From: an uncultured Gammaproteobacteria bacterium
Lineage (GTDB): Bacteria; Patescibacteriota; Patescibacteriia; UBA9934; GWF2-40-263
Reading direction: 5' to 3'
DNA: 39,086 nt
Assembly: GCA_964573855.1 (NCBI GenBank)
Contig: CAZNKO010000003.1
Coordinates: 1-39,086, forward strand
Shown: positions 371 to 23,506 of the stretch, in pieces
Numbering within the stretch: the first letter of the stretch is position 1
Layout of the letters: every line of letters begins with the position of its first letter
Made by a program: the position numbers and the translations under genes
The notes under the pieces: generated by a model
Told to the model about the DNA's origin: nothing
Database searches by the model: none
Seen by the model: only the letters and a program-made list of their open reading frames with translations

Positions 371-488
371 GACTCACCCCCTTTCAAGGGTAAAAAGGTT
401 TAAAGAACAACGCCTTAGGATAGCCTAAAAAATCAAAATTGTCAAGCCATTCCCGCGATGGTACGCTTGGGGCGATTATCGATGGTAT

Positions 489-1037: not shown

Positions 1038-1089
1038 TACACCAATAATGTAGCAGCTTCCGTTATTCTTGTCAAGTTATTACATAGTT

Positions 1090-4644: not shown

Positions 4645-4657
4645 ACCGCGATAATGT

Positions 4658-6256: not shown

Positions 6257-6260
6257 GGGC

Positions 6261-6289
6261 TTGACAAGGGAAAAGGATTTAGGTAGGGT
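6261..6289 (+). promoter_or_regulatory. sigma70-like promoter TTGACA-N17-TAGGGT
   Basis: TTGACA at 6261-6266, a 17-nt spacer, TAGGGT at 6284-6289. It lies upstream of an AAAGGAGG SD and the small ORF at 6318. Confidence 0.4.
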
Positions 6290-6317
6290 TCCTCGTCGTT
6301 CCCAAAGGAGGATGGAC

Positions 6318-6530
6318 ATGACACAGATCGTTGTCGCAGAACAGAACCTTCTGGTCCGCGATGCTCGCACGAGGAGACTTCTCGCAAGGATTCGGCCCGG
6401 GACGAAGGGCCGCGTCCTCGCGAAGAACGGCTTCCGTTTCCTGGTCGATTGGGAGGGGCACGGCGTCCAAGAGTTCGAGCACGATCCGGACTCGTTCGCC
6501 CTGAGGGAGGAGTTCTCGAGCGGTTCCTGA
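6318..6530 (+). CDS. small hypothetical protein (70 aa)
   Basis: AAAGGAGG (6304-6311) lies 6 nt before ATG 6318. Protein MTQIVVAEQNLLVRDARTRRLLARIRPGTKGRVLAKNGFRFLVDWEGHGVQEF...; promoter-like box upstream. Confidence 0.55.
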   Translation: MTQIVVAEQNLLVRDARTRRLLARIRPGTKGRVLAKNGFRFLVDWEGHGVQEFEHDPDSFALREEFSSGS

Positions 6531-6541
6531 ACACAGGAGTC

Positions 6542-6649
6542 GCTTTTTCTTTCACCACAATTCACCAAACAAAAACAAAGAATCCGCCCCAGCCAGAGGC
6601 TGGTCCGCCTTTGGCGGAAAAGTCTGAAGCGACGGCGGGTCTTTTTCCC
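6542..6649 (+). repeat. 108-nt structured repeat, copy A (sense with flanking genes)
   Basis: About 96% identical (4 mismatches) to the reverse complement of 35528-35635. Contains hairpins CCAGCC-AGA-GGCTGG and CCGCC-TTT-GGCGG enclosed by ATCCGCC/GGCGGGT, followed by CTTTTT. Confidence 0.85.
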
Positions 6650-6698
6650 AAAATACGTGCCATTTGCTATACTGGGGGCAATTAACCAGGAGGATTTC

Positions 6699-7907
6699 AT
6701 GCCCCCCAAAAAGATTCCGGCGAGAAAAGTGCCGGTGCGCACCCCGCCTCCCGAGCCGGAAACCCTGCCCGAGGAAGCCATGGAGGTGGCGGCCCGCCCG
6801 CCGACGACCCTCTATCGCCGCATTGCGGTGAGTTTCGTCGTGCTGGTCGCGCTCATTTTGCTCGCGGTCTTGTACGTCTCCACCGTCCAGGCCACCATCC
6901 GCGTGAAGCCCGTGTCAGAGGTGGTGAAGGCCGAGCTCCTCCTCGATGTGGTGGAGATTCCGACCCAGCCGAATGAAGTGCGCGGCCGTGTGGTGTCCGG
7001 CACGCTCGGGAAGAGTGAGACGTTCAAGCCGAGCGGCGAGGGAACGAAACAAGCTGAAGGAACCGCACGCGGAACCGTCACGATCAAGAACACATCCGGG
7101 AGCGCCCAGGCGCTTGTCGTGAACACGCGGCTCCTTTCAAAAGAAGGCGTGCTGTTCCGTCTGGATGCGGATGTGAGCGTGCCGGCGAATGGAAGTGTTC
7201 AGGCAAAGGTGCATGCGGACAAACCTGGAGTTGCGGGCGATAGTGGTCCGACCACGTTTACAATTCCGGGTTTGAATGAGGCGAAACAAAAGCAGGTGTT
7301 TGCGGAAAGCACGGAGGCGTTTTCCGGCGGGGTTCGGAGCATCAAAGTCATCAGTCAAGCGGATATTGACGGGGCTGCCGCGACATTGAAAGCTGCGCTC
7401 GAGGGCGAGGCCAAAGAGATGTTGCGAGAGACCGTGAGCAATCTCTACAGCGGCGAGGCCTTTGGAACCGAAGTAGTTGAGGTAACCCCAAGCGTGGAGC
7501 CGGGCGTCGAAGCCGACGAGTTTTCCGTGGAGATGTCCGTGAAGGTCACCGGCGTCTTCTTTGACCGTAAGACGGTCGAGGATCTCGCGGTTGCCCGGCT
7601 TTACCAGTCTCTTGGCGCCGGCCGCCGGTTTGCGGGCATCAACACCCAAAGTCTGCAGGCCTCCATTGATAAAGCGGATCTCGAGGGAGAACAGGCGAGC
7701 ATCAACGTGTATCTTGATGGCCGCGCCGTGCCCTCGGCCGCGAGCGCGGCCCTCGATCCGGGCCGGTTTGTCGGGAAATCACCAGCGGAAGTGAAGAGTA
7801 TGCTCGTCCTCGAAGGGGTGGCGCTCGACGTTCAAGTGGATCTCTCGCCCTTTTGGGTGCGCAAGGTGCCGCGCCTCAAGGATCATATTTACGTGGAGAT
7901 TGAGTAA
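6699..7907 (+). CDS. hypothetical single-pass membrane protein
   Basis: AGGAGG lies 6 nt before ATG 6699. A Pro-rich N-terminus is followed by the TM helix IAVSFVVLVALILLAVLYV and a large extracytoplasmic domain. I recognised no family. Confidence 0.75.
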   Translation: MPPKKIPARKVPVRTPPPEPETLPEEAMEVAARPPTTLYRRIAVSFVVLVALILLAVLYVSTVQATIRVKPVSEVVKAELLLDVVEIPTQPNEVRGRVVSGTLGKSETFKPSGEGTKQAEGTARGTVTIKNTSGSAQALVVNTRLLSKEGVLFRLDADVSVPANGSVQAKVHADKPGVAGDSGPTTFTIPGLNEAKQKQVFAESTEAFSGGVRSIKVISQADIDGAAATLKAALEGEAKEMLRETVSNLYSGEAFGTEVVEVTPSVEPGVEADEFSVEMSVKVTGVFFDRKTVEDLAVARLYQSLGAGRRFAGINTQSLQASIDKADLEGEQASINVYLDGRAVPSAASAALDPGRFVGKSPAEVKSMLVLEGVALDVQVDLSPFWVRKVPRLKDHIYVEIE

Positions 7908-7923
7908 CGTTCCTCCCCTGCAC

Positions 7924-7972
7924 CGGTAACCCCCTGTAGTCCCCCCCTGTAGTCCCCCTTGAAAAGGGGGAC
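7924..7972. repeat. C-rich hairpin module (terminator-like), copy with internal 13-nt duplication
   Basis: CGGTAACCCCCTGTAGTCCCC[CCCTGTAGTCCCC]CTTGAAAAGGGGGAC. Apart from the 13-nt tandem duplication it is the reverse complement of 20667-20702. The perfect hairpin GTCCCCCTT-GAA-AAGGGGGAC is at 7952-7972. Confidence 0.8.
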
Positions 7973-7979
7973 GATTTGT

Positions 7980-8008
7980 TTGACGATCAGTCGTCCGTCC
8001 ATTATGCT
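7980..8008 (+). promoter_or_regulatory. putative thrS promoter TTGACG-N17-TATGCT
   Basis: TTGACG at 7980-7985, a 17-nt spacer, TATGCT at 8003-8008, about 57 nt upstream of the thrS ATG. Confidence 0.45.
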
Positions 8009-8033
8009 ACATGGCGTTATTCTCGCTCTATTT

Positions 8034-8056
8034 TCTAGATTCTAGCTTCTAGATTC
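8034..8056. repeat. TCTAGA-based short tandem/palindromic repeat in the thrS 5' leader
   Basis: The sequence is TCTAGATTCTAGCTTCTAGATTC and ends 9 nt before the thrS ATG. Confidence 0.7.
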
Positions 8057-8065
8057 TTTCTGACT

Positions 8066-9874
8066 ATGGATGAAAAATTGCATGCCATGCGGCATTCGGC
8101 CGCCCACGTTCTCGCCGCGGCCGTCACCGAATTGTACCCGGACGTGAAGCTCGGGGTGGGTCCGGTCGTGGAGGACGGATTTTTTTACGACATGCTCTTG
8201 AAGCAGCCGCTGACGGAAGAGGATTTGGGGAAAATCGAAAAGAAGATGGCCGAGATTGTGAAGCGCGGCGATGATTTCACGCGGGAGGAGATGCCCATTG
8301 ACGAGGCCATTAAGTTTTTCAAAAAGCTCAAACAAGATTTCAAAGTCGAGTTGCTCACGGCCCTGAAAGAAAAGGGGACCACGTACATCCGGCCGGAAGA
8401 AGCCGGGGATGTTGGAGGATCAGCGGACAAAGCGTCCGTCTATTACACCGGGAAATTTGTGGACCTCTGCCGCGGCCCGCATGTAAAAAATTCCAAAGAA
8501 ATCGGCGCCTTCAAGCTCACGAAAATCGCGGGCGCGTATTGGCGCGGGGATGAAAAAAATCCCCAGCTCCAGCGCGTGTACGGACTTTGTTTCAAGACAG
8601 AGAAAGAACTCGACGCCCATCTCAAAATGCTCGAGGAGGCCAAGAAACGCGACCACCGAAAACTTGGGAAAGAGCTCAAACTTTTCACGTTCAGCGACCT
8701 CGTGGGCCCTGGACTGCCCTTGTGGCTACCGAACGGCGCGGTCATTGCGGATCAGCTGGAAAATCTTGCCAAAGACAGGGAAACAAAAGCGGGTTATCAG
8801 CGCGTCCGAACTCCGCACGTCGCCAAGGAGATCCTCTTTAAGACGTCCGGTCACATTCCGTACTATGCGGCCAGCATGTTTCCTCCAATGATGATGGATG
8901 AAGGGGGTGGACAGAAGGAGACGTACTATCTGAAGGCGATGAACTGCCCGCACCATCACCAGATTTATGCGGCCGAACCTCGCAGCTATCGCAATCTCCC
9001 GCTGCGTCTCGCCGAATACGGAACCGTCTATCGCTATGAAAAAAGCGGGGAGCTGTTCGGTCTCATGCGTGTTCGGATGTTGTCCATGAATGATGCGCAC
9101 ATTTACTGCACACCGGAACAGTTTGCCGAGGAATTCAAGGCCGTGAACGACATGTATCTCAATTATTTCAAATTGTTCGGATTCACGAAGTACGTGATGC
9201 GTTTTTCCACGCATGATCCGAGAGAATTAGGCAAGAAATATATTGATAATGCAGAGCTCTGGAAGAAAACGGAGGAGATGGCTCGGCAAGCCTTGATTGA
9301 GAGCGGAATCAATTACGTGGAGGTTCCGAACGAGGCCGCGTTTTATGGGCCCAAGATTGACGTGCAGGTCTGGAGTTCCATTGGCCATGAGTTTACGATC
9401 GCGACTAATCAGGTGGATTTTGCCGTGCCAGGACGGTTCGGTTTGGTCTACACGGATAAGGACGGGACGGAAAAAACGCCGCTCGTTATTCACCGTGCGC
9501 CGCTCGGCACCCACGAACGTTTTATTGGTTTCCTGATTGAGCACTATAACGGGGCGTTCCCGATGTGGCTCGCACCGGTCCAGATCCGGCTCGCGACCGT
9601 CAGCGCGGATTACGTGTCGTTTGCAAAAAAATTATTGGCCGAGCTTGTCGAGGCCGGTGTACGTGTGGAACTCGACGATTCGGACGAAAAACTCGGCAAG
9701 AAAATTCGCAATGCCGCCATGATGAAAATCCCATGGTCGGTCGTCATTGGCGAAAAAGAAGCCAAGGGCGGCGACTTTGTCGTGAACGTCTTTGGACAGG
9801 AAGAGGATTTGAATATCAAAGCCAAAGAACTTACTGCGCAGGCGAGAGAGGCGGCCCGCATCCCTCTTGCGTAA
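8066..9874 (+). CDS. thrS: threonine--tRNA ligase (short N-terminus, starts at the HxxxH second-additional-domain)
   Basis: MRHSAAHVLA, class II core (YLKAMNCPHHHQIY, RVRMLSMNDAHIYC, HRAPLGTHERFIGFLIEHY), and a C-terminal anticodon-binding domain. Confidence 0.95.
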   Translation: MDEKLHAMRHSAAHVLAAAVTELYPDVKLGVGPVVEDGFFYDMLLKQPLTEEDLGKIEKKMAEIVKRGDDFTREEMPIDEAIKFFKKLKQDFKVELLTALKEKGTTYIRPEEAGDVGGSADKASVYYTGKFVDLCRGPHVKNSKEIGAFKLTKIAGAYWRGDEKNPQLQRVYGLCFKTEKELDAHLKMLEEAKKRDHRKLGKELKLFTFSDLVGPGLPLWLPNGAVIADQLENLAKDRETKAGYQRVRTPHVAKEILFKTSGHIPYYAASMFPPMMMDEGGGQKETYYLKAMNCPHHHQIYAAEPRSYRNLPLRLAEYGTVYRYEKSGELFGLMRVRMLSMNDAHIYCTPEQFAEEFKAVNDMYLNYFKLFGFTKYVMRFSTHDPRELGKKYIDNAELWKKTEEMARQALIESGINYVEVPNEAAFYGPKIDVQVWSSIGHEFTIATNQVDFAVPGRFGLVYTDKDGTEKTPLVIHRAPLGTHERFIGFLIEHYNGAFPMWLAPVQIRLATVSADYVSFAKKLLAELVEAGVRVELDDSDEKLGKKIRNAAMMKIPWSVVIGEKEAKGGDFVVNVFGQEEDLNIKAKELTAQAREAARIPLA

Positions 9875-9883
9875 CATCAACTT

Positions 9884-9910
9884 AAAACACCCCGCGTTGC
9901 GGGGTGTTTT
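9884..9910. terminator. bidirectional intrinsic terminator between convergent thrS and ORF 9913-10269
   Basis: AAAACACCCCGC-GTT-GCGGGGTGTTTT is a perfect GC-rich stem flanked by A and T runs. Confidence 0.7.
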
Positions 9911-9912
9911 GA

Positions 9913-10269
9913 TTACATGGCGCTCTTGATGGCCGTGGCTTGGGCCTTGTCGAGCTCTTTCGCCGTATCGGCCTGGAGCTTCGCTGCCTGTTGGTTCAGG
10001 CCAGCCATGGTCTTGTCGTAACCCTTTGTCGCATCCGCAATTTCCTCCAGCATTTTTTTCTGTTGTTTTTTGTATTCCGCGCTCTTTTCATCTTGTTCCA
10101 CGCCCATCTTGGCAAATTGAGCGTCAATTTCTTTTTGGAACACGCCGCGGATCTGATCCGCCGTCTCTTCCGTGAGCCCGTTCTTTTCGAGATTCGAGAC
10201 GAGGTGCTGTTTCGTCGTGGGCTCGAGCGAGGAATCCTGGATCATTTTGATGAGGTCTGCTTGCGTCAT
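9913..10269 (-). CDS. hypothetical coiled-coil protein
   Basis: 118-aa ORF, Lys/Glu/Gln/Ala-rich with heptad-like composition. No recognisable family. Confidence 0.6.
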   Translation of the reverse strand: MTQADLIKMIQDSSLEPTTKQHLVSNLEKNGLTEETADQIRGVFQKEIDAQFAKMGVEQDEKSAEYKKQQKKMLEEIADATKGYDKTMAGLNQQAAKLQADTAKELDKAQATAIKSAM

Positions 10270-10284
10270 AAGCGATGTAATAAA

Positions 10285-11502
10285 TTAAGCCGCTTGAGTC
10301 GTTCTGGCTCCCTTCTCGAGTTTTTTTACTTCTGTCATAAGATCGATGAGATCGCTCCTTGACCAGTTGGGATACCGTTCACGTCGAGTCTTCGAGCTCC
10401 CTTTTTCGAGAATGAAATCATGCAATTCCTCTTTCGCGTTGCGGAACGCTTCCGTGCGTCCCGCTTTGAGCATGGACTTAAAGAAATCCAGGGCCTTTGC
10501 TTTTGAGAGCTCCTGTTTCGCTTCAACGATCCGCGTGACATCTTCTGGACCCGCTTCAAATTCTTCCGCTGTCACCAGTTCTTCTTCAGGCTGCTCCATG
10601 CGCGCCTTCAGCATGGATTCAATCGCTTTCAGCGCCTCTCCTTGCTTGGCGATCGTTTTCTTCAGTTCGGCAATCTCCGCATCCCGCTTGCCGAGTTCTG
10701 ATGCCATGGCCAGGCGCTCCTTATTGCGCCAGGCGTTGAAGCTGTCCACGGCTTTGTTCACACGTCCAGACAGAGCCGCGTAAGCTTCGCGACCCTTTCC
10801 GAGAATGGCCTCTTTCGCTTTCGTATAATCCGCGACCGTCTCTTGTGCATCACGGACAAAAAATTCTACGGCTTTCGTTTTTTTCTCTCCAAGGTCCTTC
10901 TTTGTTTCCTGCCAATCCTTCTTTGCGCTTTCGGCGATCTTCATCCCTGCCGCCGCCGCGCGTTCCTTGGTCTTCGCCCAGTCTTTCTTCATGTACTCGG
11001 CTCCGGCCTTTCCGCCGGCCACGAGCGCATCTTGCACAATATCTGCTCCCTTTCCGCCGACCGTATATTCAAGAAAAATAGCCGTCCCTTCGAGCGCCTT
11101 CGTTCCTGCCCATCCTGTCGCGGTCAGGAATTTGTCATTCCACTCGTAGGCCTTGTTGGCGCCAAATTTTGCGTGCTCCCATGTCTTTGCGGCATCCTTT
11201 GCCGCGAACGCCGCCCCCTTCTTTCCGCCAACCTCGGCTCCGCCAAGAAGCTTAAAGGCACCCTTCATCAGGTTTTCTCCAAGCCAACGCCCTCCTTTTG
11301 AAACTCCGTCCTTCAAGCTTTCCCCCCCGCGGCGGGCATGGTCTTTGGTCTCCGTCCAGTCTCCCTCCAGATACTCGGCCCCGGCCTTGACTTTTTCTTT
11401 AACAAACCGGCCTCCCTCACGCACCCCCTCGGCCATTTTGCGGGCCCGTGCCCGCCCGACTTCCTCCATCGTTGACTGCCTTTCGGCTCGTTCTGCGGAC
11501 AT
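10285..11502 (-). CDS. hypothetical Lys/Ala/Gly-rich repeat protein with C-terminal coiled coil
   Basis: Internal repeats of the type KAGAEY(L/M)..DW..TK. I prefer ATG 11502 (MSAERAERQ...) because the track's 11676 start would run through the divergent promoter. Confidence 0.6.
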   Translation of the reverse strand: MSAERAERQSTMEEVGRARARKMAEGVREGGRFVKEKVKAGAEYLEGDWTETKDHARRGGESLKDGVSKGGRWLGENLMKGAFKLLGGAEVGGKKGAAFAAKDAAKTWEHAKFGANKAYEWNDKFLTATGWAGTKALEGTAIFLEYTVGGKGADIVQDALVAGGKAGAEYMKKDWAKTKERAAAAGMKIAESAKKDWQETKKDLGEKKTKAVEFFVRDAQETVADYTKAKEAILGKGREAYAALSGRVNKAVDSFNAWRNKERLAMASELGKRDAEIAELKKTIAKQGEALKAIESMLKARMEQPEEELVTAEEFEAGPEDVTRIVEAKQELSKAKALDFFKSMLKAGRTEAFRNAKEELHDFILEKGSSKTRRERYPNWSRSDLIDLMTEVKKLEKGARTTQAA

Positions 11503-11559
11503 AGAAGAGATAATTTTTAGGGTATTGATTAGTTCCCAGTTTAGCAGAAAAACCGGCTC

Positions 11560-11588
11560 TTGACAAGATCCCCAAAATTGTCTAGGGT
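11560..11588 (+). promoter_or_regulatory. sigma70-like promoter TTGACA-N17-TAGGGT
   Basis: Same architecture as at 6261. It is followed by the hairpin GTCGCCC-TCG-GGCGAC, GAAAGGAGG, and ATG 11624. Confidence 0.4.
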
Positions 11589-11623
11589 CTAAGGTCGCCC
11601 TCGGGCGACAGAAAGGAGGCCCC

Positions 11624-12085
11624 ATGGGGCTGTGTCTGATCGAATCAGCGGGCCTCACGGAGCCCACCCAAGCCACATCGCACGATTCGGACGCTTTTGC
11701 AGCGTTCCTAGAGCATTTGACCTGGAGGGCGGATCATCCGTCTCCCGCGTCGTGCGTGTTTTTACCAGAGGAGAGAGAGGTTCTGGAGCTTGCCATGCGC
11801 TGCTCTAGGACCTGGACGCCGGAGCGTTTAGAAGCGGCCGGGAAACTCCTGGCCACATTGAACCCCGAAACGGTGTCCGAGGGCATCATGAGCGTCGCGA
11901 TCGCGAGCATGATCGACCGCTCGCGCCACGTGCAGCTCCCGCCGCACATGCCGCTCCGAAGGCTCGAACGGGATCTTGAGCGGTATGCCGCTCGCGTTGG
12001 GGAAGATCTCTTCCCCCCACGCCTCGAGTTCCTCCGGCTCGCCTTCCTCATCTTGTTTCTCTCCTCTACCTCGTCCACCTCGTGA
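11624..12085 (+). CDS. hypothetical protein
   Basis: Strong SD (AAAGGAGG) 4 nt upstream, a promoter-like box upstream, and an intrinsic terminator right after the stop. Confidence 0.55.
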   Translation: MGLCLIESAGLTEPTQATSHDSDAFAAFLEHLTWRADHPSPASCVFLPEEREVLELAMRCSRTWTPERLEAAGKLLATLNPETVSEGIMSVAIASMIDRSRHVQLPPHMPLRRLERDLERYAARVGEDLFPPRLEFLRLAFLILFLSSTSSTS

Positions 12086-12119
12086 CCGGACTCTTTGCAG
12101 AGTGCCGGTCTTTTCTTTT
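12084..12119 (+). terminator. intrinsic terminator
   Basis: GACCGGACTCT-TTGC-AGAGTGCCGGTC followed by TTTTCTTTT. Confidence 0.6.
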
Positions 12120-12126
12120 GGAGACC

Positions 12127-12153
12127 GCTGAAATTCCTCTGGAGTTTTTCAGC
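12127..12153. repeat. short hairpin, 'empty' relative of the 16272-16397 element
   Basis: GCTGAAATTCCTCTGGAGTTTTTCAGC. It shares TGAAATTCCTC and TCTGGAGTTTTTCA with the arms of the element at 16272-16397. Confidence 0.6.
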
Positions 12154-12170
12154 AGTCTCTGTTAGTCTCG

Positions 12171-13568
12171 ATGAGAATTATGGCTACCCCGAAGTATCAT
12201 CTTGTCACCTACGGCTGCCAGATGAACAAGAGCGATTCGGAGCGGATCGCCGCGCTTCTTTCTGGCGTTGGGTTTGAGCCGACCACGCAGGAGGGGGAAG
12301 CCGATTTGATTTTGGTGAACACATGTTCCGTGCGCCAAACGGCCGAGGATCGCGTGTATGGGCAGGTGCGCGGATGGAATGTGCTCAAGGAACGCCGGCC
12401 GAATTTGATCATTGGGGTTACGGGCTGTATGCCTGGGCGCGATCGTGATGGGACGCTTCGGAAAAAATTGCCAATTGTAGACCTGTATTTTCCAATCGCG
12501 GACCTGCCCCAGCTTCCGCGTTGGATCGGGGAACTGCGTCCCGAGCTCGTAAACAGCGCGGACCTTGCGGAGGATTATTTGAAGATCGTGCCCGAGCGCA
12601 AAACCGCGCGTCAGGCGTTTGTGACGATTCAAACCGGCTGTAATAAATTCTGCACGTATTGTGTGGTGCCATTTGCTCGCGGGCTCGAAAAGAACCGGCC
12701 GGTCAGGGATATTCTGGATGAAGTGCGCGGCCTCGCGGATCGTGGGTGTGTTGAGGTAACACTCCTCGGCCAGACCGTAAATAGTTACCGCGCGCCAGAC
12801 CCCGAACATTTCTCGGAACAAAACCCGTTCAAAGATCATTTTGCGGCGCTACTTTGGGAGGTCAACCAGGTTTCAGGCATTTCGCGCCTGCATTTTACGG
12901 CCCCGCATCCGCTTCATATGACGGATGAAGTCATCGAAGCGATGAAACTTCCGGCGCACGTGAATTTCATCCATCTGCCCGTGCAGTGCGGGGACAACGA
13001 TATGCTCCGGCGCATGAACCGCCGGCACACCCGCGAACAGTATCTTGATGTCGTGCGCCGAATTCGGGAGAAAATTCCTGCGCTCGCGATCGGGACGGAC
13101 ATCATTGTCGGATTTTCCGGCGAATCCGCGGAGCAATTCGACCGGACCGTGAGCCTCTATAAAGAAGTTGGGTTTGATATTTCGTACACCGCTCAATATT
13201 CCCAGCGCTCCGGCACGGCTGCGTGGCGGGCGTTCAAGGACGATGTGCCGCGCGAGGAAAAGAAGCGGCGCTGGCGGGTGTTGCAGGAACTTATGGAAAA
13301 AATCGTGTACGAAAAGAACCAGGCGTATGCCGGGAAGACCGTGAGTGTCTTGGTGGAGCGTCATGAACCGCCAAAGCTCACGGACGAAATGCTTGTGATG
13401 CCCGGGAACATCCAGAAGATCCTGGCCGCTCAGCCTGGGACGTGTTTTGGCAATTCGCGGGAGCTCAAGCTCGTGAACTTCCCCGGCGCGAAAAGTTTGG
13501 TGGGGCAGATCGTGAACGTCCGCATCAAAAAAGCAGAGCGGTGGATCTTGGAAGGCGAGAGAGTATGA
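12171..13568 (+). CDS. miaB: tRNA-i6A37 methylthiotransferase
   Basis: N-terminal UPF0004 domain (YGCQMNKSDSE), radical-SAM CNKFCTYC, and a C-terminal TRAM domain. Confidence 0.9.
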   Translation: MRIMATPKYHLVTYGCQMNKSDSERIAALLSGVGFEPTTQEGEADLILVNTCSVRQTAEDRVYGQVRGWNVLKERRPNLIIGVTGCMPGRDRDGTLRKKLPIVDLYFPIADLPQLPRWIGELRPELVNSADLAEDYLKIVPERKTARQAFVTIQTGCNKFCTYCVVPFARGLEKNRPVRDILDEVRGLADRGCVEVTLLGQTVNSYRAPDPEHFSEQNPFKDHFAALLWEVNQVSGISRLHFTAPHPLHMTDEVIEAMKLPAHVNFIHLPVQCGDNDMLRRMNRRHTREQYLDVVRRIREKIPALAIGTDIIVGFSGESAEQFDRTVSLYKEVGFDISYTAQYSQRSGTAAWRAFKDDVPREEKKRRWRVLQELMEKIVYEKNQAYAGKTVSVLVERHEPPKLTDEMLVMPGNIQKILAAQPGTCFGNSRELKLVNFPGAKSLVGQIVNVRIKKAERWILEGERV

Positions 13569-18031: not shown

Positions 18032-18135
18032 AAATTCGAAATGTTGAAAATTCGAAATCCGAAGAAGGAGAAACAAATTTTAAAATTCGAATTTTGAATT
18101 TTTTCGGATTTTCTATTTTTCGAATTTCGGATTTC
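18032..18135. repeat. AT-rich TTCGAA-based tandem and inverted repeats
   Basis: AAATTCGAAAT, GAAAATTCGAAATCCGAAG ... AAAATTCGAATTTT ... TTCGGATTTTC ... TTTTTCGAATTTCGGATTTC. The repeats fill the tmk to membrane-protein spacer. Confidence 0.7.
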
Positions 18136-18817
18136 ATACGGATAGGATGGGGAGGACGAGTCCCCAGACGCGCTCATGAATGCTTTCAATCGAGAGGAGC
18201 TGTCCGTTCTCGACACATTCCACCACCCGGAAATCGTTTGGGAAGCGCTCGGCCATTTCGAGGTACGTTTTTTCCGCGGCCTCGATATGCTTCACATCCG
18301 TTTCGAGGATATCGCGGGCGATCTTCGCTTTCCAGCCCCCACGCTGTTTGGTGAGCTCCATCGCAATCGCAGCCGGCACATGCAGAATGATATTGATGTC
18401 GGGCTTTGGGGTTTGGAGAAGTTCGTGCTCGATCTCCCTGTCCCAGGTGAAAAATTTTCCTCGCTCTGCCGGATCCTCGATGTGAGACCCTTGGTGTCCC
18501 ATGTTCGCGCTCACATACCGATCAGCCACGACATGCTTGCCGCTCTCGAGCCAGTCCCGAATTTGGAACGAGGCGTCGAACCGGTCCACGGCGTAGAGGA
18601 GGGAGGCCCGATACGGTCCCACCGTTTTGGCCGAACCGTAGGCACCCGAGAGATATTCTTCCACAGGCCCGGCACTCTTTTTGCCGTACTGCGGGAAAGC
18701 GATGGTCTCGACCGGCCCGTGCTCGAACTTCATTCGGTTAATAAGGAGCTTGGTCTGGGTGGCTTTGCCAGATCCGTCTGTGCCGTCAATCACGATGAGT
18801 TTCCCGCGCCGAACCAT
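18134..18817 (-). CDS. tmk: thymidylate (dTMP) kinase family
   Basis: P-loop IVIDGTDGSGKATQ, DRY motif (VADRYVSAN), and lid region. Confidence 0.9.
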   Translation of the reverse strand: MVRRGKLIVIDGTDGSGKATQTKLLINRMKFEHGPVETIAFPQYGKKSAGPVEEYLSGAYGSAKTVGPYRASLLYAVDRFDASFQIRDWLESGKHVVADRYVSANMGHQGSHIEDPAERGKFFTWDREIEHELLQTPKPDINIILHVPAAIAMELTKQRGGWKAKIARDILETDVKHIEAAEKTYLEMAERFPNDFRVVECVENGQLLSIESIHERVWGLVLPILSV

Positions 18818-18835: not shown

Positions 18836-19267
18836 TTAGCCCGTCGTACCCCAGCCGCCCCGTGAGGGCGCCGTGAGCGTCTCGGCTTCGATGAATTTTG
18901 CGTGTGCGACAGGGAGGAAGAGCCCTTGGGCGAGCCGTTCGCCCTTTTCGATCGTGTAGGGTGCGGTCCCCTCGTTCAGGAGGGCGAGATGGAGCTCATC
19001 CCCCGGCCCGCAATAATCAGGATCGATGATGCCGATGCTGTTCGTAAGCCGGATGCCCTTTTTTGCGTTCGATGAGCGTGAGGCAATGATCAACACATAT
19101 CCTTCGGGGACGCACACAACGAGTCCGGTTTTGACGAATGCGCGTTCGCCGGGCGCAACCGTGACGGATTCGCTGACCGCGATGTCGAATCCAACGGCTC
19201 CTTTTGTTTTATACTCCGGCAGGGGGACGTCGGACCCCATCCGCTTGATATGCACAGCCAAGTCCAT
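18836..19267 (-). CDS. dut: trimeric dUTP diphosphatase
   Basis: AVGFD, SRSS, GIIDPDYCGP, and C-terminal RGGWGTTG (motif V). Confidence 0.9.
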   Translation of the reverse strand: MDLAVHIKRMGSDVPLPEYKTKGAVGFDIAVSESVTVAPGERAFVKTGLVVCVPEGYVLIIASRSSNAKKGIRLTNSIGIIDPDYCGPGDELHLALLNEGTAPYTIEKGERLAQGLFLPVAHAKFIEAETLTAPSRGGWGTTG

Positions 19268-19325
19268 AACTTCGATATGTTAGCCCAAATCTTTGCCATT
19301 TGGAATGCCAGCGAGGTTTGGTAAG

Positions 19326-20171
19326 ATGGCGGCAGCTATGACGATATTTGACCGCCTTTATCTCGACACCCTGCGTCGAATTTATACGGAAGGGGAAATG
19401 GTGTACAGCCATCGGACCGGCTACGCGACAAAAGCGTTGCCAGGGGTTACGTATGAACTTGAACCGGCTAAAGGGTTCCCTCTTTTGACCGTCCGGAAGA
19501 TGTTCCCGAAGTTTTTTTGCGCGGAGATGGTCTGGTTCATCGCCGGGCACAAACACGCGGGTTTCCTCCAGCAATTTACAAAAGGGTGGGATGAATTTCT
19601 TGAGCCGGATGGCACGGTTGAGACCGCTTACGGTTATCGTTGGCGGCATCACTTCGGCCGCGATCAGCTCGTGGATCTCGTTGAACACCTGCGGGAGGAG
19701 CCGACCTCCCGTCAAGGGGTCGTTCTTATGTGGGACCCGGCTTCCGACGGCCTGCGCGCCCCGAAAAAGAAAAATGTCCCCTGTCCGTTTTGCTGGACCG
19801 CGAACGTCATCGGCGGCAAATTAAACCTCCATCTTGTCATCCGTTCGAACGACATGGTTCTCGGCAACCCGAACGATGTCGCGGATTTTGCTCTCTTGCA
19901 AGCAATCCTTGCCCAGGAGCTCGGGCTCGGTATTGGAAAACTCACGATCTCGATCTCCCACGCGCACATTTATGAAAACCAGTTTGATGCGGTGAATGAT
20001 ATTCTCTCACGTGACGTTCCTGTACATCCTGAAATTGTCTGTCGGCTCCCGGAGAACACTTTTCAACGCGCGCTTCAGGCCGACGCGGAACTTGTCCACG
20101 AATTGATCGAGATGTTCAAGGGCCAGTACCAACCGCTTGCGCCCATGAAAAAGATGCAGATCGCCGTATGA
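19326..20171 (+). CDS. thymidylate synthase (ThyA) family protein with Asp at the Asn177-equivalent position
   Basis: HRTGYAT, GWDEF, TSRQGVVLMWD, catalytic Cys in VPCPF, IRSNDMVLGNPNDVADFALL, HAHIYENQ, and TS-like C-terminus KKMQIAV. The start is uncertain (19305, 19326 or 19338); a GAGG 9 nt upstream favours 19326. Confidence 0.85.
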   Translation: MAAAMTIFDRLYLDTLRRIYTEGEMVYSHRTGYATKALPGVTYELEPAKGFPLLTVRKMFPKFFCAEMVWFIAGHKHAGFLQQFTKGWDEFLEPDGTVETAYGYRWRHHFGRDQLVDLVEHLREEPTSRQGVVLMWDPASDGLRAPKKKNVPCPFCWTANVIGGKLNLHLVIRSNDMVLGNPNDVADFALLQAILAQELGLGIGKLTISISHAHIYENQFDAVNDILSRDVPVHPEIVCRLPENTFQRALQADAELVHELIEMFKGQYQPLAPMKKMQIAV

Positions 20172-20665
20172 ACGTCATTCTCATCGCGGCAGTCTCCGCG
20201 GATGGCAAAATTGCCTCCGACGAAGGCCAATCGTCGCTCACGTGGACTTCCAAAGAAGACACGAAGTTTTTTGTTTCCAAAACCAAAGAGATCGGCACGG
20301 TTGTGATGGGGCGGAAGACGTTTGAAACGATCGGCAAGCCGCTCAAGGACCGGCGCATCATCGTCATGACGCATAAGCCAGCCATTTCGCAGATGATTGG
20401 CGTGGAATTTACAGCCGAGGAGCCGCAAGCACTTCTCTTACGGCTCGAGAAAGAAGGAGTGAAGGCGGTCGCGATTGCGGGCGGGGCGCAGGTGTACCGC
20501 ACTTTTTTGGACGCCAACCTTGTCGATGAGATGTTTTTGACGATTGAACCTATCCTCTTCGGCTCCGGTATGCCGCTGGTTGATCACGGCTCTGCAAAAA
20601 AACTCGAACTTCTCGCGTCGAGCCCTCTTGGCCCTGGCATCCTCCTGCATTTTCGTGTTCTCTAA
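20168..20665 (+). CDS. dihydrofolate reductase-like protein (RibD C-terminal/DHFR family)
   Basis: MNVILIAAVSADGKIA ... VVMGRKTFETIG ... IAGGAQVYRTFL. There is an ATGA overlap with the ThyA-family gene. Confidence 0.75.
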   Translation: MNVILIAAVSADGKIASDEGQSSLTWTSKEDTKFFVSKTKEIGTVVMGRKTFETIGKPLKDRRIIVMTHKPAISQMIGVEFTAEEPQALLLRLEKEGVKAVAIAGGAQVYRTFLDANLVDEMFLTIEPILFGSGMPLVDHGSAKKLELLASSPLGPGILLHFRVL

Positions 20666-20666
20666 C

Positions 20667-20745
20667 GTCCCCCTTTTCAAGGGGGACTACAGGGGGTTAC
20701 CGTAGCTTCGGTAACCTCCCCTAACCCCTCCTTGAAAAGGAGGGG
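20667..20745 (+). promoter_or_regulatory. three consecutive perfect hairpins; the third sequesters the SD of the downstream gene
   Basis: GTCCCCC-TTTTCAA-GGGGGAC (20667-20687). GGTTACCG-TAGCTT-CGGTAACC (20695-20716). CCCCTCCTT-GAA-AAGGAGGGG (20725-20745), whose 3' arm is the AAGGAGG SD located 8 nt before ATG 20752. Confidence 0.6.
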
Positions 20746-20751
20746 GGCACT

Positions 20752-21690
20752 ATGGCTGAATCAATCGCTCAAAAAGTAAGCGAGGTGAAATACCCCTACA
20801 TGCCGGAGGGGCGCGTGTTTAAGTTCGTACCCGAGAACGATCCGTTTATGGCCGAAGCAAAAAAGGCGCGCGAGACGCTTTCGGGCGATCCGCTCTTTCC
20901 GGTCGGCATGGTGCTCGTGAAAGACGGGAAGATTATTGCGCGTGCCGGAAACGGATTCAACAAAGGCGGCGGCGCGGTGCACGTCTGTCCTCGCATCGTT
21001 CTTGAGTCTCCGAGTGGAACCGGCTATGACCTTTGTCACCTCCACGACGCTCCCGGGCACGCCGAGCCAATGGTCATTGAGACCGCGCGGAAGGCAGGCG
21101 TTGATCCAAAAGGCGCTGACGGTTACATGTACGGCCACTGGTGGTGTTGCGAGCCGTGTTGGAAATCCATGCTCGATGCGGGTGTGCGCGACGTGTACCT
21201 TCTCGAAAACGCTCACGAGGTGTTTTCGCGCGATCATGTCTACGCCGAAACGCTCAAACCAAAGTGCAAAACCGTTTATATTGCAGGCGGACTTACGAAT
21301 TTGTCCGAACAGATTCGTGGTCTACAGAAGGGATTGTATGAAAAGCTTGCCGGCGCGGCCGAGGAGCTCGGTCTCACTGCGTATGTGCCGCATCATCACA
21401 GCGACCCCATTGTGCATCCAAAGATCTCACCGCGCGAAGTCTACGAGATGGATATCAAGCTCGTGAAAAACTATGATGTGATTGTCGCGGAGGTTTCCTA
21501 TCCCTCGCTCGGAGTCGGCGGGGAGCTTGTCGTCGCCAAGGACGCAGGAAAGAAGATCGTCCTACTCTCCAAAAAAGGCATTCCCGTCACGCGTTTCGTC
21601 CGCGGCAACCCCGCAGTCGTGTATCACATCGAATACGAAACCCCCGAGGCCGCGTGCAGGATGTTGAAGAATGTATTGAAGCAAATATAG
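20752..21690 (+). CDS. fusion: dCMP/cytidine-deaminase-fold domain + nucleoside 2-deoxyribosyltransferase/DNPH1(Rcl)-like domain
   Basis: N-terminal half: VGMVLVKDGKIIARAGNG, zinc motifs HAE (PGHAEPM) and CxxC (CCEPC). C-terminal half: VYIAGGL ... DVIVAEVSYPSLGVGGELVVAKDAGKKIVLL, as in NDT/Rcl-fold proteins. Confidence 0.75.
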   Translation: MAESIAQKVSEVKYPYMPEGRVFKFVPENDPFMAEAKKARETLSGDPLFPVGMVLVKDGKIIARAGNGFNKGGGAVHVCPRIVLESPSGTGYDLCHLHDAPGHAEPMVIETARKAGVDPKGADGYMYGHWWCCEPCWKSMLDAGVRDVYLLENAHEVFSRDHVYAETLKPKCKTVYIAGGLTNLSEQIRGLQKGLYEKLAGAAEELGLTAYVPHHHSDPIVHPKISPREVYEMDIKLVKNYDVIVAEVSYPSLGVGGELVVAKDAGKKIVLLSKKGIPVTRFVRGNPAVVYHIEYETPEAACRMLKNVLKQI

Positions 21691-21692
21691 AT

Positions 21693-22097
21693 ATGGACAA
21701 TGAAAGTAACACTTTGCTTTGGACGATTGTAAACGTAGCAGCGGTTTTACTTAGTCCGCTTATCGCTCTGTCGATTGGGGATATCCTTCAACGGAGGAAT
21801 CAATATCGAGCTCAGAGGTTTGACGTGCTAAGGAGAATTATCTCTTTTAGTTACCAACTACATCCAGACACTACTCGGAACGACGAATTTTTAAGTGCAT
21901 TATTAGAAATTAAATTTTGGTATCATCGCGATCGCCAAATTATTGGTGCTTGGATGACATTCCACAATAAGCTAGTAAGCGGAGCAGACGGAACCGACGA
22001 GCTGTATAAACTCATGGAGCTTCTTATTAAGAAAGAAAAACTTAAACTTTCTCACGCTGAGCTCGTAGCTACCTTATACGGTAAATATCGTAAATAG
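21693..22097 (+). CDS. hypothetical N-terminally anchored membrane protein, AT-rich gene
   Basis: ATG 21693 (MDNESNTLLWTIVNVAAVLLSPLIALSIG...). GC is markedly lower than the flanks. No family recognised. Confidence 0.55.
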   Translation: MDNESNTLLWTIVNVAAVLLSPLIALSIGDILQRRNQYRAQRFDVLRRIISFSYQLHPDTTRNDEFLSALLEIKFWYHRDRQIIGAWMTFHNKLVSGADGTDELYKLMELLIKKEKLKLSHAELVATLYGKYRK

Positions 22098-22402: not shown

Positions 22403-22795
22403 TTACTGCGGGAGTTCGAAGAGAGCTTCGGGCGGTTCGGTGATGATGCACGTCGCCCTTCCTTCACCCACTTCACTGCCCGCGAACTTTCCGGTCCAGA
22501 ACTGATCCGCCAGCCAGAACGTGTACAAGATCTCGTCCGGTCGGTCGTTGTATCGTTTGGTGAATCGGATCTGGTCTTTCGTTACGGCGATGTTGTAGAG
22601 GATCGAGGTTCCCGCCGCGTCCCTCATGTAGCCACACAGGGCTCCGCTTTCGTCTGTGTAAATCACGCCAGCGAACATGTAGTTGAAGGTGCCATCGACG
22701 ACAATAACCTCGTGCCCCTTCGCCCGTTCTTCACCGCGGGCAAGGTCCAAGACCTGCCTGCGTTGGAAGAAATACCCTTGAATGAAACGTACCAC
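22403..22795 (-). CDS. hypothetical protein (130 aa)
   Basis: GTG start preceded by AAAGGAGG at 5-nt spacing, with its own terminator. No family recognised (…TKDQIRFTKRYNDRPDEILYTFWLADQFWTGKF…). Confidence 0.65.
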   Translation of the reverse strand: MVRFIQGYFFQRRQVLDLARGEERAKGHEVIVVDGTFNYMFAGVIYTDESGALCGYMRDAAGTSILYNIAVTKDQIRFTKRYNDRPDEILYTFWLADQFWTGKFAGSEVGEGRATCIITEPPEALFELPQ

Positions 22796-22849: not shown

Positions 22850-23506
22850 TTAAATTTCAAACCGTTTCTTGAGTTCGTCCAATTTTCCTTCCATGAGCGC
22901 GTGGCGTTCTTCGTCTTTGTCGAGTTGAAAACCGGAAGAGCCGGTGCCGCTGTATTTGGCTTGCGTGACGCCGTGGAGGTTCGCTTCCTCCTGCGAGAGC
23001 GGCTGGGTGAGCTCCTGAAAGATCACCTGGCATACGCGCTCGCCGGGATAGATGCGGAGCACTTGGTCGCCGGCTTCGTTTTTCATCGGGAAGATGAGAT
23101 GGCCGTTGTAGCCCGTGTCGATGATACCGGAGAGGGAGAGGTCAATGCCGCGGCGGTTGGTCGAGGTGCGCGGGAAGAGGAGAGCCATGAGTTTTGGCGC
23201 GTTCATTTCGATGCGCTCGAGCGACATGCCGATCACGAATTCGTTTGGGAGGAGTTCAAAATATTGCCCGGGCTTTAAATAGACTTCGTCAAATTGTCCT
23301 TGATAGACCGACGGGTCATCGATCGAGATTTTGAGCGCGCGCCGCCCTTTTTCATCCATGGTCCAGTTTTTTGGAATCAAAAATTTGTACCCAAGCCGCA
23401 GGTCCACCGCATGCGGCTGGAGCTGGAACTGGTCGAGTTCTGGGGTGAAGCGGATCTCGCCACGCTTCACGGCCTCGAGGATTTCCCGGCGGGTGATGAT
23501 GGCCAT
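22850..23506 (-). CDS. dCTP deaminase (Dcd)/dUTPase-superfamily protein lacking the catalytic Glu
   Basis: AVDLRLG, PRTSTNRRG (compare GRSSLARLG), and GIIDTGYNGHLIFPMKN (compare RIDPGWSGCIVLEFYN). Pro aligns with E. coli Glu138. An extra C-terminal helix is present. Confidence 0.85.
   Translation of the reverse strand: MAIITRREILEAVKRGEIRFTPELDQFQLQPHAVDLRLGYKFLIPKNWTMDEKGRRALKISIDDPSVYQGQFDEVYLKPGQYFELLPNEFVIGMSLERIEMNAPKLMALLFPRTSTNRRGIDLSLSGIIDTGYNGHLIFPMKNEAGDQVLRIYPGERVCQVIFQELTQPLSQEEANLHGVTQAKYSGTGSSGFQLDKDEERHALMEGKLDELKKRFEI

Follow-up and report, generated by a model that had tools for sequence, protein, structure and literature searches.

A predicted deaminase–DNPH1-like fusion enzyme in a putative 5-methyl-dCMP to dTMP operon of Uhrbacteria and related Patescibacteria

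The stretch of DNA analysed here (39,086 nt, referred to as the window) comes from an uncultured member of the Uhrbacteria/CPR, and its open reading frame at 20752..21690 (+) encodes a 312-amino-acid protein that combines a dCMP-deaminase-family domain with a DNPH1-like dNMP N-glycosidase domain, an assignment based on Pfam and phmmer matches, conservation, an AlphaFold2 (AF2) model and Foldseek. The reading we favour, to which we give slightly less than an even chance, is that this protein may be the bifunctional enzyme of an operon of Uhrbacteria and related Patescibacteria that converts 5-methyl-dCMP into dTMP, with the DNPH1-like domain serving as an accessory sanitiser. The operon looks like an apparent cellular counterpart of the 5-methyl-dCMP module of phage Xp12. 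To our knowledge, the formation of thymidylate from dUMP is regarded as an almost universal route of cells, and methylation of dCMP followed by deamination is known only from 5mC phages. Searches of the literature returned no description of a deaminase–DNPH1 fusion or of a bacterial DNPH1 beside a dCMP deaminase, and those on thymidylate metabolism in Uhrbacteria or CPR found nothing describing such a system.

Architecture of the fusion protein and its deaminase domain

The open reading frame is uninterrupted and preceded by a GGAGG Shine-Dalgarno sequence 9 nt 5' of the ATG. An assembly or frameshift artefact was ruled out since the deaminase–DNPH1-like architecture is common to more than 200 homologous clusters and is found in identical form in many independent assemblies. 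A search of species-representative genomes gave 395 relatives of the fusion protein, and the family is conserved in Candidatus Uhrbacteria and related Patescibacteria. The initial annotation had described a fusion of a dCMP-deaminase fold to a fold of the nucleoside deoxyribosyltransferase (NDT)/DNPH1 type with domain limits at residues ~160 and ~175; Pfam, profile searches, AF2 and Foldseek bear out the two domains, and the boundary was corrected to near residue 170.

The zinc deaminase domain comprises approximately residues 31-160 (20842..21231, +). Residues 31-150 match Pfam dCMP_cyt_deam_1 (PF00383) with E=1.4e-10; the score of 41.4 bits exceeds the curated cut-off of 25, so that the deaminase half of the earlier assignment holds at the level of domain HMMs. 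Both motifs on which it had been based are present, PGHAEPM with the catalytic H103-A-E105 (21058-21066, +) and CCEPC with the zinc ligands C133 and C136 (21148-21159, +). H103, E105, C133 and C136 are invariant in alignment A1 and in every complete sequence read from the related loci (88 of 90 ORF segments from 88 loci, the remaining two being gapped fragments). The best relative in the PDB, as identified by a profile search, is the dCMP deaminase of S. mutans (2hvv, E=2.4e-8), and dCMP deaminases are also the best PDB matches of residues 1-170. The equivalog threshold of TIGR02571 (ComEB) is missed, with 23.4 bits as compared to a cut-off of 219. By these comparisons the domain is a divergent subfamily of the dCMP-deaminase family.

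With the bacterial, phage and human dCMP deaminases (ComEB, S. mutans 2hvv, T4 cd, human DCTD) the domain has in common the HAE and CxxC zinc site as well as an extra Cys/His-rich insertion that is suggestive of their structural zinc. The insertion contains the conserved residues H77, C79, C95 and H98 (20980-21045, +), which may form a second, structural zinc site, and in the sequence alignment its position matches that of the Cys/His insertion of the S. mutans enzyme. In contrast to these deaminases, the fusion protein exhibits a GHWW(A/C)CEPCW motif, an N-terminal extension with the consensus YPYxPEGR and the fused C-terminal domain. The N-terminal motif, YPYMPEGR in the window protein (residues 14-21; 20791..20814, +), lies 5' of the deaminase core, with Y14, P15 and P18 being invariant or nearly so in alignments A1 and A5, and recurs in P0134 and P0159, two distant fusions. 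In another relative, P0170, the same two domain families are joined in the order reverse to that of P0134 and P0159; fusion in both orders argues that the two domains are functionally coupled and share a metabolite.

Identity and active site of the DNPH1-like domain

The C-terminal domain (residues 172-312; 21265..21687, +) contains the strings VYIAGGL (175-181) and DVIVAEVSYPSLGVGGELVVA (242-262), which had led to the initial assignment of this half to the NDT/Rcl fold. Tested as a single sequence against Pfam Nuc_deoxyrib_tr (PF05014), the assignment stood only in part: the whole protein does match at E=1.9e-5, but marginally, as the scores of 25.2 bits for the whole protein and 27.5 bits for the isolated domain stay below the curated cut-off of 28.8. 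Within the family 20 of 23 members match PF05014 at E<0.01, the best of them at 6e-10. Rat and human DNPH1 are the best matches in a phmmer search against the PDB (E about 1e-5), and a 23-sequence profile of the domain ranked rat DNPH1 (5e-11) and human DNPH1 (5e-10) before BcmB (5e-8), BlsM (7.5e-7) and MilB (1.7e-5), with true NDTs at 2e-3 or worse. In the AF2 model (pLDDT 93.9, pTM 0.88) the fold agrees with this result, all top 50 Foldseek matches being DNPH1, MilB, BcmB or NDT (probability 1.0, TM (target) 0.57-0.83). Judged from profile and model, the domain is closest to the nucleotide N-glycosidases DNPH1/Rcl, BcmB, BlsM and MilB, and human and rat DNPH1/Rcl are the best match of residues 172-312 in both sequence and fold. 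A true NDT was ruled out: NDT/PTD enzymes (PF05014) share the fold and the position of the Glu nucleophile, but the Pfam assignment is weak, in the profile search they reach E-values 7 to 8 orders of magnitude poorer than DNPH1 does, and the fusion protein has a Ser at the position of the phosphate-binding Ser of DNPH1, indicating a nucleotide rather than a nucleoside substrate.

The Tyr/Asp/Glu triad of DNPH1 and both of its phosphate-binding Ser positions can be aligned with the window protein. Y176 (21277-21279, +) corresponds to Y24 of human and Y13 of rat DNPH1, D234 (21451-21453, +) to human D80 and rat D69, S252 (21505-21507, +) to human S98, and T280 (21589-21591, +) is aligned to rat S117 (human Ser128'). 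The predicted nucleophile, E258 (21523-21525, +), corresponds to human E104 and rat E93, so the catalytic Glu, whose absence would have spoken against the initial annotation, is in place, and the surrounding PSLGVGxEL motif is nearly identical to that of DNPH1. In DNPH1 the 5'-phosphate is clamped by Ser98 together with Ser128' from the neighbouring subunit (PMC10603095). The Glu is invariant and the Tyr nearly invariant among full-length members, S252 is invariant, and position 280, Thr in the window protein, is Ser in most homologs. Alignment A4 shows no variation at S, G, G and E, and the GxG loop is almost invariant where the full domain exists.

Other features set the domain apart from DNPH1. 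Identity is only about 25%, the protein is bacterial and fused to a deaminase, and the position equivalent to D80 is Asp in about half of the full-length family and Ala, Ser, Thr or Gly in the rest. In the HMM alignment the E55/H56 positions of DNPH1 fall on T208/A209, which are variable columns, i.e. this helical element, to which water activation and stabilisation of the leaving group are ascribed in DNPH1, is not conserved by alignment. A family-specific PHxx(S/T)DP motif is located nearby and might substitute for E55/H56. The variability of the D80 equivalent and the lack of conservation at E55/H56 suggest that catalytic competence and mechanism may differ from those of DNPH1.

The second-best group of PDB matches, the CMP and hydroxymethyl-CMP N-glycosidases MilB, BcmB and BlsM, has the same fold and Ser/Glu core and, like the fusion protein, acts beside a cytosine-specific TS-family enzyme (MilA/BcmA). 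These enzymes, however, use ribonucleotides, have a Phe (F17 in MilB) at the sugar-specificity position and recognise phosphate and hydroxymethyl through Arg23 (residue roles from PMC10603095), whereas the fusion protein lacks this signature and has Tyr176 and Thr182 at the two positions. A Tyr instead of the Phe fits a deoxyribose substrate.

The DNPH1-like domain is absent or cut to a remnant of 45-77 aa in ~38 of 88 related loci (~40%). These loci keep TS(Asp), DHFR and deaminase, showing that the domain is accessory to the deaminase and dispensable. Such losses, together with the variable D80 equivalent and the missing conservation of E55/H56, would also suit a non-catalytic C-terminal domain, i.e. 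a module for nucleotide-binding regulation or oligomerisation such as a dTMP/dNMP sensor that controls the deaminase, and dCMP deaminases are classically allosteric. We regard this explanation as unlikely, since full domains hardly vary in the Glu nucleophile, the phosphate Ser, the GxG loop or the Tyr, and hundreds of stand-alone homologs retain these motifs. The domain more probably is an active glycosidase. Its relatives form a large bacterial DNPH1-like family (238 clusters at E<=1e-10), and the stand-alone members occur in unrelated contexts including generic housekeeping ones, suggesting that the ancestral role of the domain is general and not bound to the thymidylate pathway. The closest stand-alone homolog, P0122, has a generic genomic context, and a word-indexed search with it returned P0122 alone.

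Operon context and comparison with the phage Xp12 module

A thymidylate synthase (TS)-family enzyme is encoded at 19293..20171 (+; PF00303, 4.6e-53), its likely true start being M16 (19338, +). It has the catalytic C164 (19782-19784, +) and, according to PDB alignments, D195 (19875-19877, +) at the position of E. coli N177; P165 (+) aligns with E. coli H147. D195 is the cytosine-type specificity residue that the initial annotation had noticed in the neighbouring gene, and the association of the fusion with Asp-type ThyA homologs extends to the related genomes: Asp is found at the Asn177 position in all 74 related loci with a readable TS gene, with the catalytic Cys kept, and position 147 is non-His in 74/74. 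The N177D specificity rule and the joint occurrence of Asp-type TS and dCMP-deaminase-family genes in 5mC phages have been described (PMC8670742; bioRxiv 10.1101/2024.12.05.627091). Among phage enzymes the TS homolog is nearest to those of the clade of Xp12, Mallos and PaMx74; its identity to the Xp12 TS is 38% (E=1e-53), and the two have Asp177, Pro147 and a WDPxxDGL...KKNVPCP insertion in common. From the N177D rule and the similarity to Xp12 the TS homolog is predicted to be a dCMP methylase.

The gene for dihydrofolate reductase (DHFR; 20168..20665, +; DHFR_1 and RibD_C at about 5e-21) has a start that overlaps the TS stop codon (ATGA) and is translationally coupled to the TS homolog. It adjoins TS(Asp) in nearly all loci, and in the relative P0072 it is joined with the deaminase-DNPH1 protein in a single polypeptide. 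Coupling and fusion to DHFR as well as the canonical TS-like C-terminal ...IAV tail, which the TS homolog keeps, fit methyl transfer, which produces dihydrofolate, and not hydroxymethylation. The fusion gene does not directly follow the TS gene, as had been stated at first, but comes third in the order TS homolog, DHFR, fusion gene. The spacer between DHFR and fusion gene (20666..20751, +) is structured (MFE -52.4 kcal/mol, z=-4.7), with three hairpins, the last of which covers the Shine-Dalgarno sequence; it matches no Rfam family.

On the opposite strand lies the gene for a DCD-like protein of the dUTPase fold (22850..23506, -; PF22769, 4e-25). PDB alignments place Pro140 (23087-23089, -) at the position of Glu138 of E. 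coli Dcd, and of the 73 DCD-like ORFs that were aligned, 70 have Pro instead of the catalytic Glu. This exchange rules out a normal dCTP deaminase, and the absence of the deaminase Glu implies that the protein cannot provide the usual dCTP to dUTP/dUMP route. Genes for thymidylate kinase (tmk; 18134..18817, -; PF02223, 1.5e-15) and, divergent from the TS(Asp) operon, dUTPase (dut; 18836..19267, -; PF00692, 3.8e-22) were assigned from Pfam matches and synteny. The operon TS-DHFR-(DCD-like)-fusion with the adjacent tmk and dut occupies a conserved slot between gatB and rplA-rplK-nusG-secE-gyrB, distant relatives have a same-strand operon TS-DHFR-DCD-fusion, and extra nucleotide-kinase genes are part of the operon in some relatives. 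In the closed genome L081, which counts against the favoured reading, the fusion occurs together with kinases and the DCD-like gene, but TS and DHFR were not found within 6 kb. A phage origin of the locus was ruled out as the window carries dnaE, thrS, miaB, gatB, gyrB and rplA.

These neighbours bear on the possibility that the locus serves ordinary pyrimidine metabolism, with a plain dCMP deaminase feeding a dUMP-using TS and the C-terminal domain being an unrelated salvage or catabolic dNMP glycosidase fused by chance. Database annotations do name the family 'deoxycytidylate deaminase', dut and a DCD-like gene lie in the neighbourhood, and stand-alone relatives of the C-terminal domain reside in generic housekeeping contexts. 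We nevertheless consider this improbable: Asp at N177 and non-His at 147 in all TS homologs constitute an established signature of cytosine specificity, the DCD-like protein lacks the Glu needed to supply dUTP/dUMP from dCTP in the usual way, and both domain families have been fused repeatedly and in either order.

The favoured reading, dTMP formation from 5-methyl-dCMP, draws on the resemblance to phage Xp12, whose module consists of MazG-like, TS, dCMP deaminase and DHFR genes. As in the window operon, an Asp-type TS, a dCMP-deaminase-family enzyme and DHFR are encoded in cis, and the role proposed for the deaminase of Xp12-type phages, conversion of 5-methyl-dC nucleotides into thymidine nucleotides, is the one proposed here. 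The candidate pyrophosphatase has a DCD fold in the window operon and is MazG-like in Xp12. The two deaminases are only distantly related (29% over 108 aa, E=0.008), and mSCD-B5, the sole characterised 5mC-selective deaminase of phage, acts on triphosphates, not monophosphates (bioRxiv 10.1101/2024.12.05.627091). Unlike the phage modules the window operon belongs to the chromosome and extends lineage-wide within a cellular phylum, and it comprises a DNPH1-like domain that no phage version has, as judged from IMG/VR, BFVD and the Xp12 module. The IMG/VR scan yielded two distant stand-alone deaminases and no fusion locus, a full-length match to the fusion protein was not found in BFVD, and a DNPH1-like protein concealed among the genes of the Xp12 module was ruled out, the 148-aa hypothetical protein giving an hhalign probability of 1.2%.

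Proposed pathway and implications

Based on these findings the following route can be proposed. The Glu-less DCD-like protein, a putative dCTP/dNTP pyrophosphatase, would convert dCTP to dCMP, which the Asp-type TS homolog, given its predicted substrate class, would methylate to 5-methyl-dCMP with release of dihydrofolate. DHFR would recycle dihydrofolate to tetrahydrofolate, the N-terminal domain of the fusion protein would deaminate 5-methyl-dCMP to dTMP, and Tmk would phosphorylate dTMP to dTDP. The C-terminal domain would be an active deoxynucleoside 5'-monophosphate N-glycosidase of the DNPH1 type, in which E258 would act as nucleophile with the help of Y176 and D234 and the 5'-phosphate would be held by S252 and T280'. 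Most probably the domain would serve to hydrolyse deoxyuridylate-type by-products, which the Asp-type TS could not use and which would be harmful if phosphorylated, to free base and deoxyribose 5-phosphate. Candidate substrates are dUMP, arising from off-target deamination of dCMP or from Dut, and 5-hydroxymethyl-dUMP (hmdUMP), arising where hmdCMP is formed as a side product and deaminated. Human DNPH1 removes hmdUMP downstream of dCMP deaminase, a pairing that follows the same logic as the bacterial fusion.

The two activities could also operate in sequence, as in MilA/MilB and BcmA/BcmB: the TS homolog would make a 5-substituted dCMP, and the fusion protein would deaminate it and then free the modified base, for instance 5-hydroxymethyluracil or thymine, either as product or for catabolism. 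In structure and sequence MilB and BcmB are indeed among the nearest relatives of the C-terminal domain, a cytosine-type Asp TS-family enzyme is encoded in the same operon, and fusion in both orders suggests that the product of one domain feeds the other. Several observations make such a sequence quite unlikely. The link to DHFR, by coupling or by fusion, and the close similarity to the Xp12 methylase speak for a methylating enzyme and for dTMP as the product, and cleavage of the pathway's own product would be futile. The MilB-type systems lie in secondary-metabolite clusters without DHFR, in contrast to a lineage-wide core chromosomal operon with DHFR, tmk and dut; about 40% of the loci have lost the glycosidase domain and kept the rest of the operon; and at the sugar-specificity position Tyr replaces the Phe of MilB, with the equivalent of its Arg23 missing. 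DHFR coupling or fusion, similarity to Xp12, the core position with tmk and dut and the domain loss suggest instead that the primary job of the deaminase is dTMP formation via 5-methyl-dCMP. On the same four grounds the initial suggestion, in which a modified pyrimidine would be deaminated and then lose its base, is not supported as the main flux; of the purposes considered with it, namely pool sanitising, salvage and release of a free modified base, pool sanitising is retained as the most plausible role of the C-terminal domain.

A further alternative starts from the 5-methyl-dCMP pool itself. The operon might supply 5-methyl-dCTP for DNA, with 5mC taking the place of some or all of the C, as known from Xp12, and the fusion protein would balance the 5-methyl-dC and dT pools and clear unmodified or deaminated by-products. 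The gene set parallels that of Xp12 (a candidate dCTP-depleting pyrophosphatase, TS(Asp), deaminase and DHFR), and the extra nucleotide-kinase genes in the operons of some relatives would suit this purpose. A dedicated 5-methyl-dCMP kinase, however, was not identified within the window, and we know of no cellular organism with complete replacement of C, making this alternative very improbable.

Returning to dTMP synthesis via 5-methyl-dCMP, a conserved chromosomal operon that unites Asp-type TS, DHFR, deaminase and a Glu-less DCD-like protein makes a phage-type route in cells testable. The fusion would represent a bacterial counterpart, wired into a single gene, of the human DCTD-DNPH1 axis of nucleotide sanitising and opens access to the large bacterial DNPH1-like family, and the deaminase is a possible 5-methylcytosine-nucleotide deaminase of potential practical use. 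A bolder proposal, which we find rather doubtful but worth stating, is that Uhrbacteria and related Patescibacteria have no dUMP-dependent thymidylate synthase and make all of their dTMP by a cytosine-first, uracil-free route in which the DNPH1-like domain would be the sink for dUMP and hmdUMP. If this is true, they would be the first cellular lineage to use the strategy of phage Xp12 as core metabolism, and the cytosine-first route may go along with unusually high levels of 5-methylcytosine in their DNA.

A conserved deaminase joined to a DNPH1-like domain

The fusion gene (20752-21690, +) is an intact open reading frame for 312 aa with a GGAGG ribosome-binding site 9 nt upstream. Residues 31-150 match the Pfam family dCMP_cyt_deam_1 (E=1.4e-10, 41.4 bits; cut-off 25), and among PDB entries this domain is most closely related to the S. 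mutans dCMP deaminase. The deaminase motifs named in the initial annotation, PGHAEPM (H103, E105) and CCEPC (C133, C136), are present, with all four residues being invariant in an alignment of 36 homologs and in the 88 related loci analysed locally. An insertion of the domain holds a second conserved Cys/His cluster (H77, C79, C95, H98), a putative structural zinc site like that in dCMP deaminases. Ahead of the deaminase core, a YPY(L/M)PEGR motif (20791-20814, +) occurs family-wide, also in the distant fusions P0134 and P0159, and had no counterpart among characterised dCMP deaminases in the PDB alignments.

For the C-terminal half, assigned initially to the nucleoside deoxyribosyltransferase/DNPH1 fold, the Nuc_deoxyrib_tr HMM alone was borderline (25.2 bits; cut-off 28.8), and stronger tests settled its identity. 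A profile of 23 C-terminal domains matched rat DNPH1 (5e-11), human DNPH1 (5e-10), BcmB (5e-8), BlsM (7.5e-7) and MilB (1.7e-5), genuine nucleoside deoxyribosyltransferases scoring 2e-3 or worse, and PF05014 is matched by 20 of the 23 members. Rat and human DNPH1/Rcl are also the nearest relatives with a solved structure when the whole protein is compared. An AlphaFold2 model calculated with 36 homologs as input was confident (pLDDT 93.9, pTM 0.88), and its C-terminal domain superposes on the structures of DNPH1, MilB, BcmB and NDT. Pfam, profile and model thus bear out the two-domain architecture, and we have hardly any doubt that the fusion is a real, conserved enzyme built in this way.

A profile alignment of the C-terminal domain to rat DNPH1 equates Y176, D234, S252 and E258 of the fusion with Y13, D69, S87 and E93 of the rat enzyme (human Y24, D80, S98 and E104), and T280, a Ser in most homologs, with S117 (human S128'). 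In DNPH1 these residues make up the catalytic triad and a pair of phosphate-binding serines (PMC10603095). The equivalence has two caveats: the Asp varies across the family, and conservation at the positions of DNPH1 E55/H56 was not found in the alignment. Whereas MilB has Phe at the sugar-specificity position, the fusion has Tyr, suggesting a 2'-deoxy substrate, and the Ser clamp suggests a 5'-monophosphate.

Distribution and fate of the C-terminal domain

Candidatus Uhrbacteria and other Patescibacteria supply nearly all of the >200 clusters of the fusion family, which has 395 relatives among species-representative genomes; it was absent from the phage and IMG/VR contigs searched. Many third-party MAG records carrying the Uhrbacteria-syntenic locus name 'uncultured Gammaproteobacteria' or 'Candidatus Saccharibacteria' in their titles (loci L012, L014, L020, L026, L032, L033 and others), probably as mislabelled taxonomic placeholders.

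The C-terminal domain itself belongs to a large, uncharacterised DNPH1-like family of 238 clusters (E<=1e-10), most members being stand-alone and about 145 aa long, with the common motifs YI(A/S)GxLTN, PHxx(S/T)DP, PSLGxGxE and VSRxxxGNP. Homolog searches with the fusion and with this domain revealed a protein in which members of this deaminase subfamily and this DNPH1-like family are joined in reversed order (P0170, 293 aa) and one with DHFR in front of both (P0072, 481 aa). Such independent joining in either order is good evidence for a metabolite pool common to the two activities. Further architectures include DNPH1-like+DCD-like (with Glu)+hydrophobic tail (P0183, 410 aa) and Ser/Thr kinase+NDT-like+HTH (P0184/P0186, about 600 aa).

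In about 38 of the 88 loci (L007, L040-L046, L049-L057, L059-L069, L071-L073, L076, L077, L080) the C-terminal domain is absent or reduced to a remnant of 45-77 aa, in which the first strand and last helix persist without the catalytic core, with the deaminase being intact. This pattern indicates repeated loss, and the glycosidase domain is therefore accessory to the deaminase. A non-catalytic, regulatory role of the domain fits these data in part, as the domain is frequently lost and about half of the family members have A, S, T or G instead of the Asp equivalent to D234 (36-homolog alignment and 88 loci); against such a role, Glu, Ser and Tyr are near-invariant wherever the domain is complete.

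An operon with a cytosine-type TS homolog

The window is core chromosome (dnaE, thrS, miaB, gatB, rplA, gyrB). The initial annotation placed the fusion right after a TS-family gene with a cytosine-type residue; the two do share an operon and the TS homolog (19293-20171, +) is of the Asp type, but a DHFR gene (20168-20665, +) lies between them. In essentially every locus this TS/DHFR/fusion operon has the fusion in third place, stop and start codons often overlapping, and tmk, dut and a DCD-like gene (22850-23506, -) adjoin it in a slot between gatB and rplA-rplK-nusG-secE-gyrB. Distant relatives carry the order TS/DHFR/DCD-like/fusion (/tmk) on one strand, with the DCD-like gene inside the operon.

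Three strong hairpins form in the 87-nt spacer between DHFR and fusion (20666-20751, +; MFE -52.4 kcal/mol, z=-4.7); the GGAGG Shine-Dalgarno sequence of the fusion gene is paired in the last hairpin, and the spacer matches no Rfam family. It is a lineage-specific insertion, as the two genes overlap in relatives, and may be a regulatory or repeat element. Downstream, a DUF6680 ORF (21654-22097, +) overlaps the end of the fusion gene by 37 nt, beginning with a GTG codon, and is followed on the opposite strand by a 130-aa ORF without Pfam match (22403-22795, -); the segment between fusion and DCD-like gene differs among genomes, holding SET-domain, NUDIX, FtsK-like or Cytidylate_kin2 genes elsewhere. 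In locus L081 (OZ246400.1, a closed 931-kb chromosome; 1-12894) the order is tyrosine recombinase, DCD-like, fusion, AAA_17-type nucleotide kinase, Tmk, unknown and GatB, and neither TS nor DHFR lies within 6 kb.

The cytosine-type residue pointed out in the initial annotation recurs in the relatives: all 74 readable TS homologs carry Asp in the place of E. coli Asn177, and all retain the catalytic Cys. In the window these positions are Asp195 and, for His147, Pro165, a Pro that recurs in the related loci; the likely true start is Met16 (19338). Exchange of this Asn for Asp is known to shift specificity from dUMP to dCMP, and positions 177 and 147 are the two at which TS homologs from phages that modify cytosine stand out (PMC8670742). 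In a comparison with 50,697 phage records, the TS homolog of the window came closest to Xp12, Mallos, PaMx74 and allies, the Xp12 enzyme being 38% identical (E=1e-53) with insertions in common. Since the Xp12 enzyme and five related ones make 5-methyl-dCMP (bioRxiv 10.1101/2024.12.05.627091), residue rule and likeness to an assayed enzyme lead us to infer dCMP as substrate. DHFR coupling and the conserved TS-like C-terminus (...IAV; ...KMQIAV in the protein from the window) agree with methyl transfer that yields DHF, and less with hydroxymethylation.

The window operon has the same enzyme set as the Xp12 module (MazG-like pyrophosphatase/TS/dCMP deaminase/DHFR). Adjacent phage dCMP-deaminase-family genes were proposed to convert 5-methyl-dC into thymidine nucleotides, and the characterised phage 5mC-selective deaminase prefers triphosphates (bioRxiv 10.1101/2024.12.05.627091); the Xp12 and fusion deaminases are only remote relatives. 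A more radical reading, of low probability, would be 5mC-substituted DNA as in Xp12.

The DCD-like protein, called dCTP deaminase by HMM, has Pro140 in place of the catalytic Glu138 of E. coli Dcd, as do 70 of 73 aligned DCD-like ORFs from related loci. Ser, Arg and Asp in the site for nucleotide binding and hydrolysis are retained. The protein is thus unlikely to deaminate dCTP and may be a DCD-fold pyrophosphatase converting dCTP to dCMP. Plain dCMP to dUMP metabolism conflicts with both this Glu-less protein and the Asp-type TS.

A putative cytosine-first route to thymidylate

The proposed route would run dCTP to dCMP to 5-methyl-dCMP to dTMP to dTDP, the N-terminal domain of the fusion most likely completing it by deaminating 5-methyl-dCMP; we consider such a route fairly probable. 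Architecture, conservation and gene context are direct observations; the substrates of the TS homolog, the deaminase and the glycosidase, and the activity of the DCD-like protein, are inferred. dUMP, arising from Dut and any dCMP deamination, would be a dead end for a TS without use for it, and side products could give rise to hydroxymethyl-dUMP. Joined to the deaminase, a DNPH1-type glycosidase would be a plausible sink for these deoxyuridylates, returning base and deoxyribose 5-phosphate to salvage, and the fusion would mirror the human DCTD-DNPH1 pair. A specific sanitiser function is a tentative and rather doubtful assignment, and the route together with this function, as stated, falls slightly short of an even chance. 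The initial proposal that the fusion deaminates and then releases the base, like MilA/MilB, is disfavoured: DHFR is coupled, the context is core genome, many loci have lost the glycosidase domain, and where MilB has its specificity residues the fusion carries Tyr and a residue other than Arg.

Our literature search turned up no publication on the fusion, nor one on an Asp-type TS from CPR bacteria. The fusion is built from known parts, and its operon context raises the interest beyond the fusion itself.
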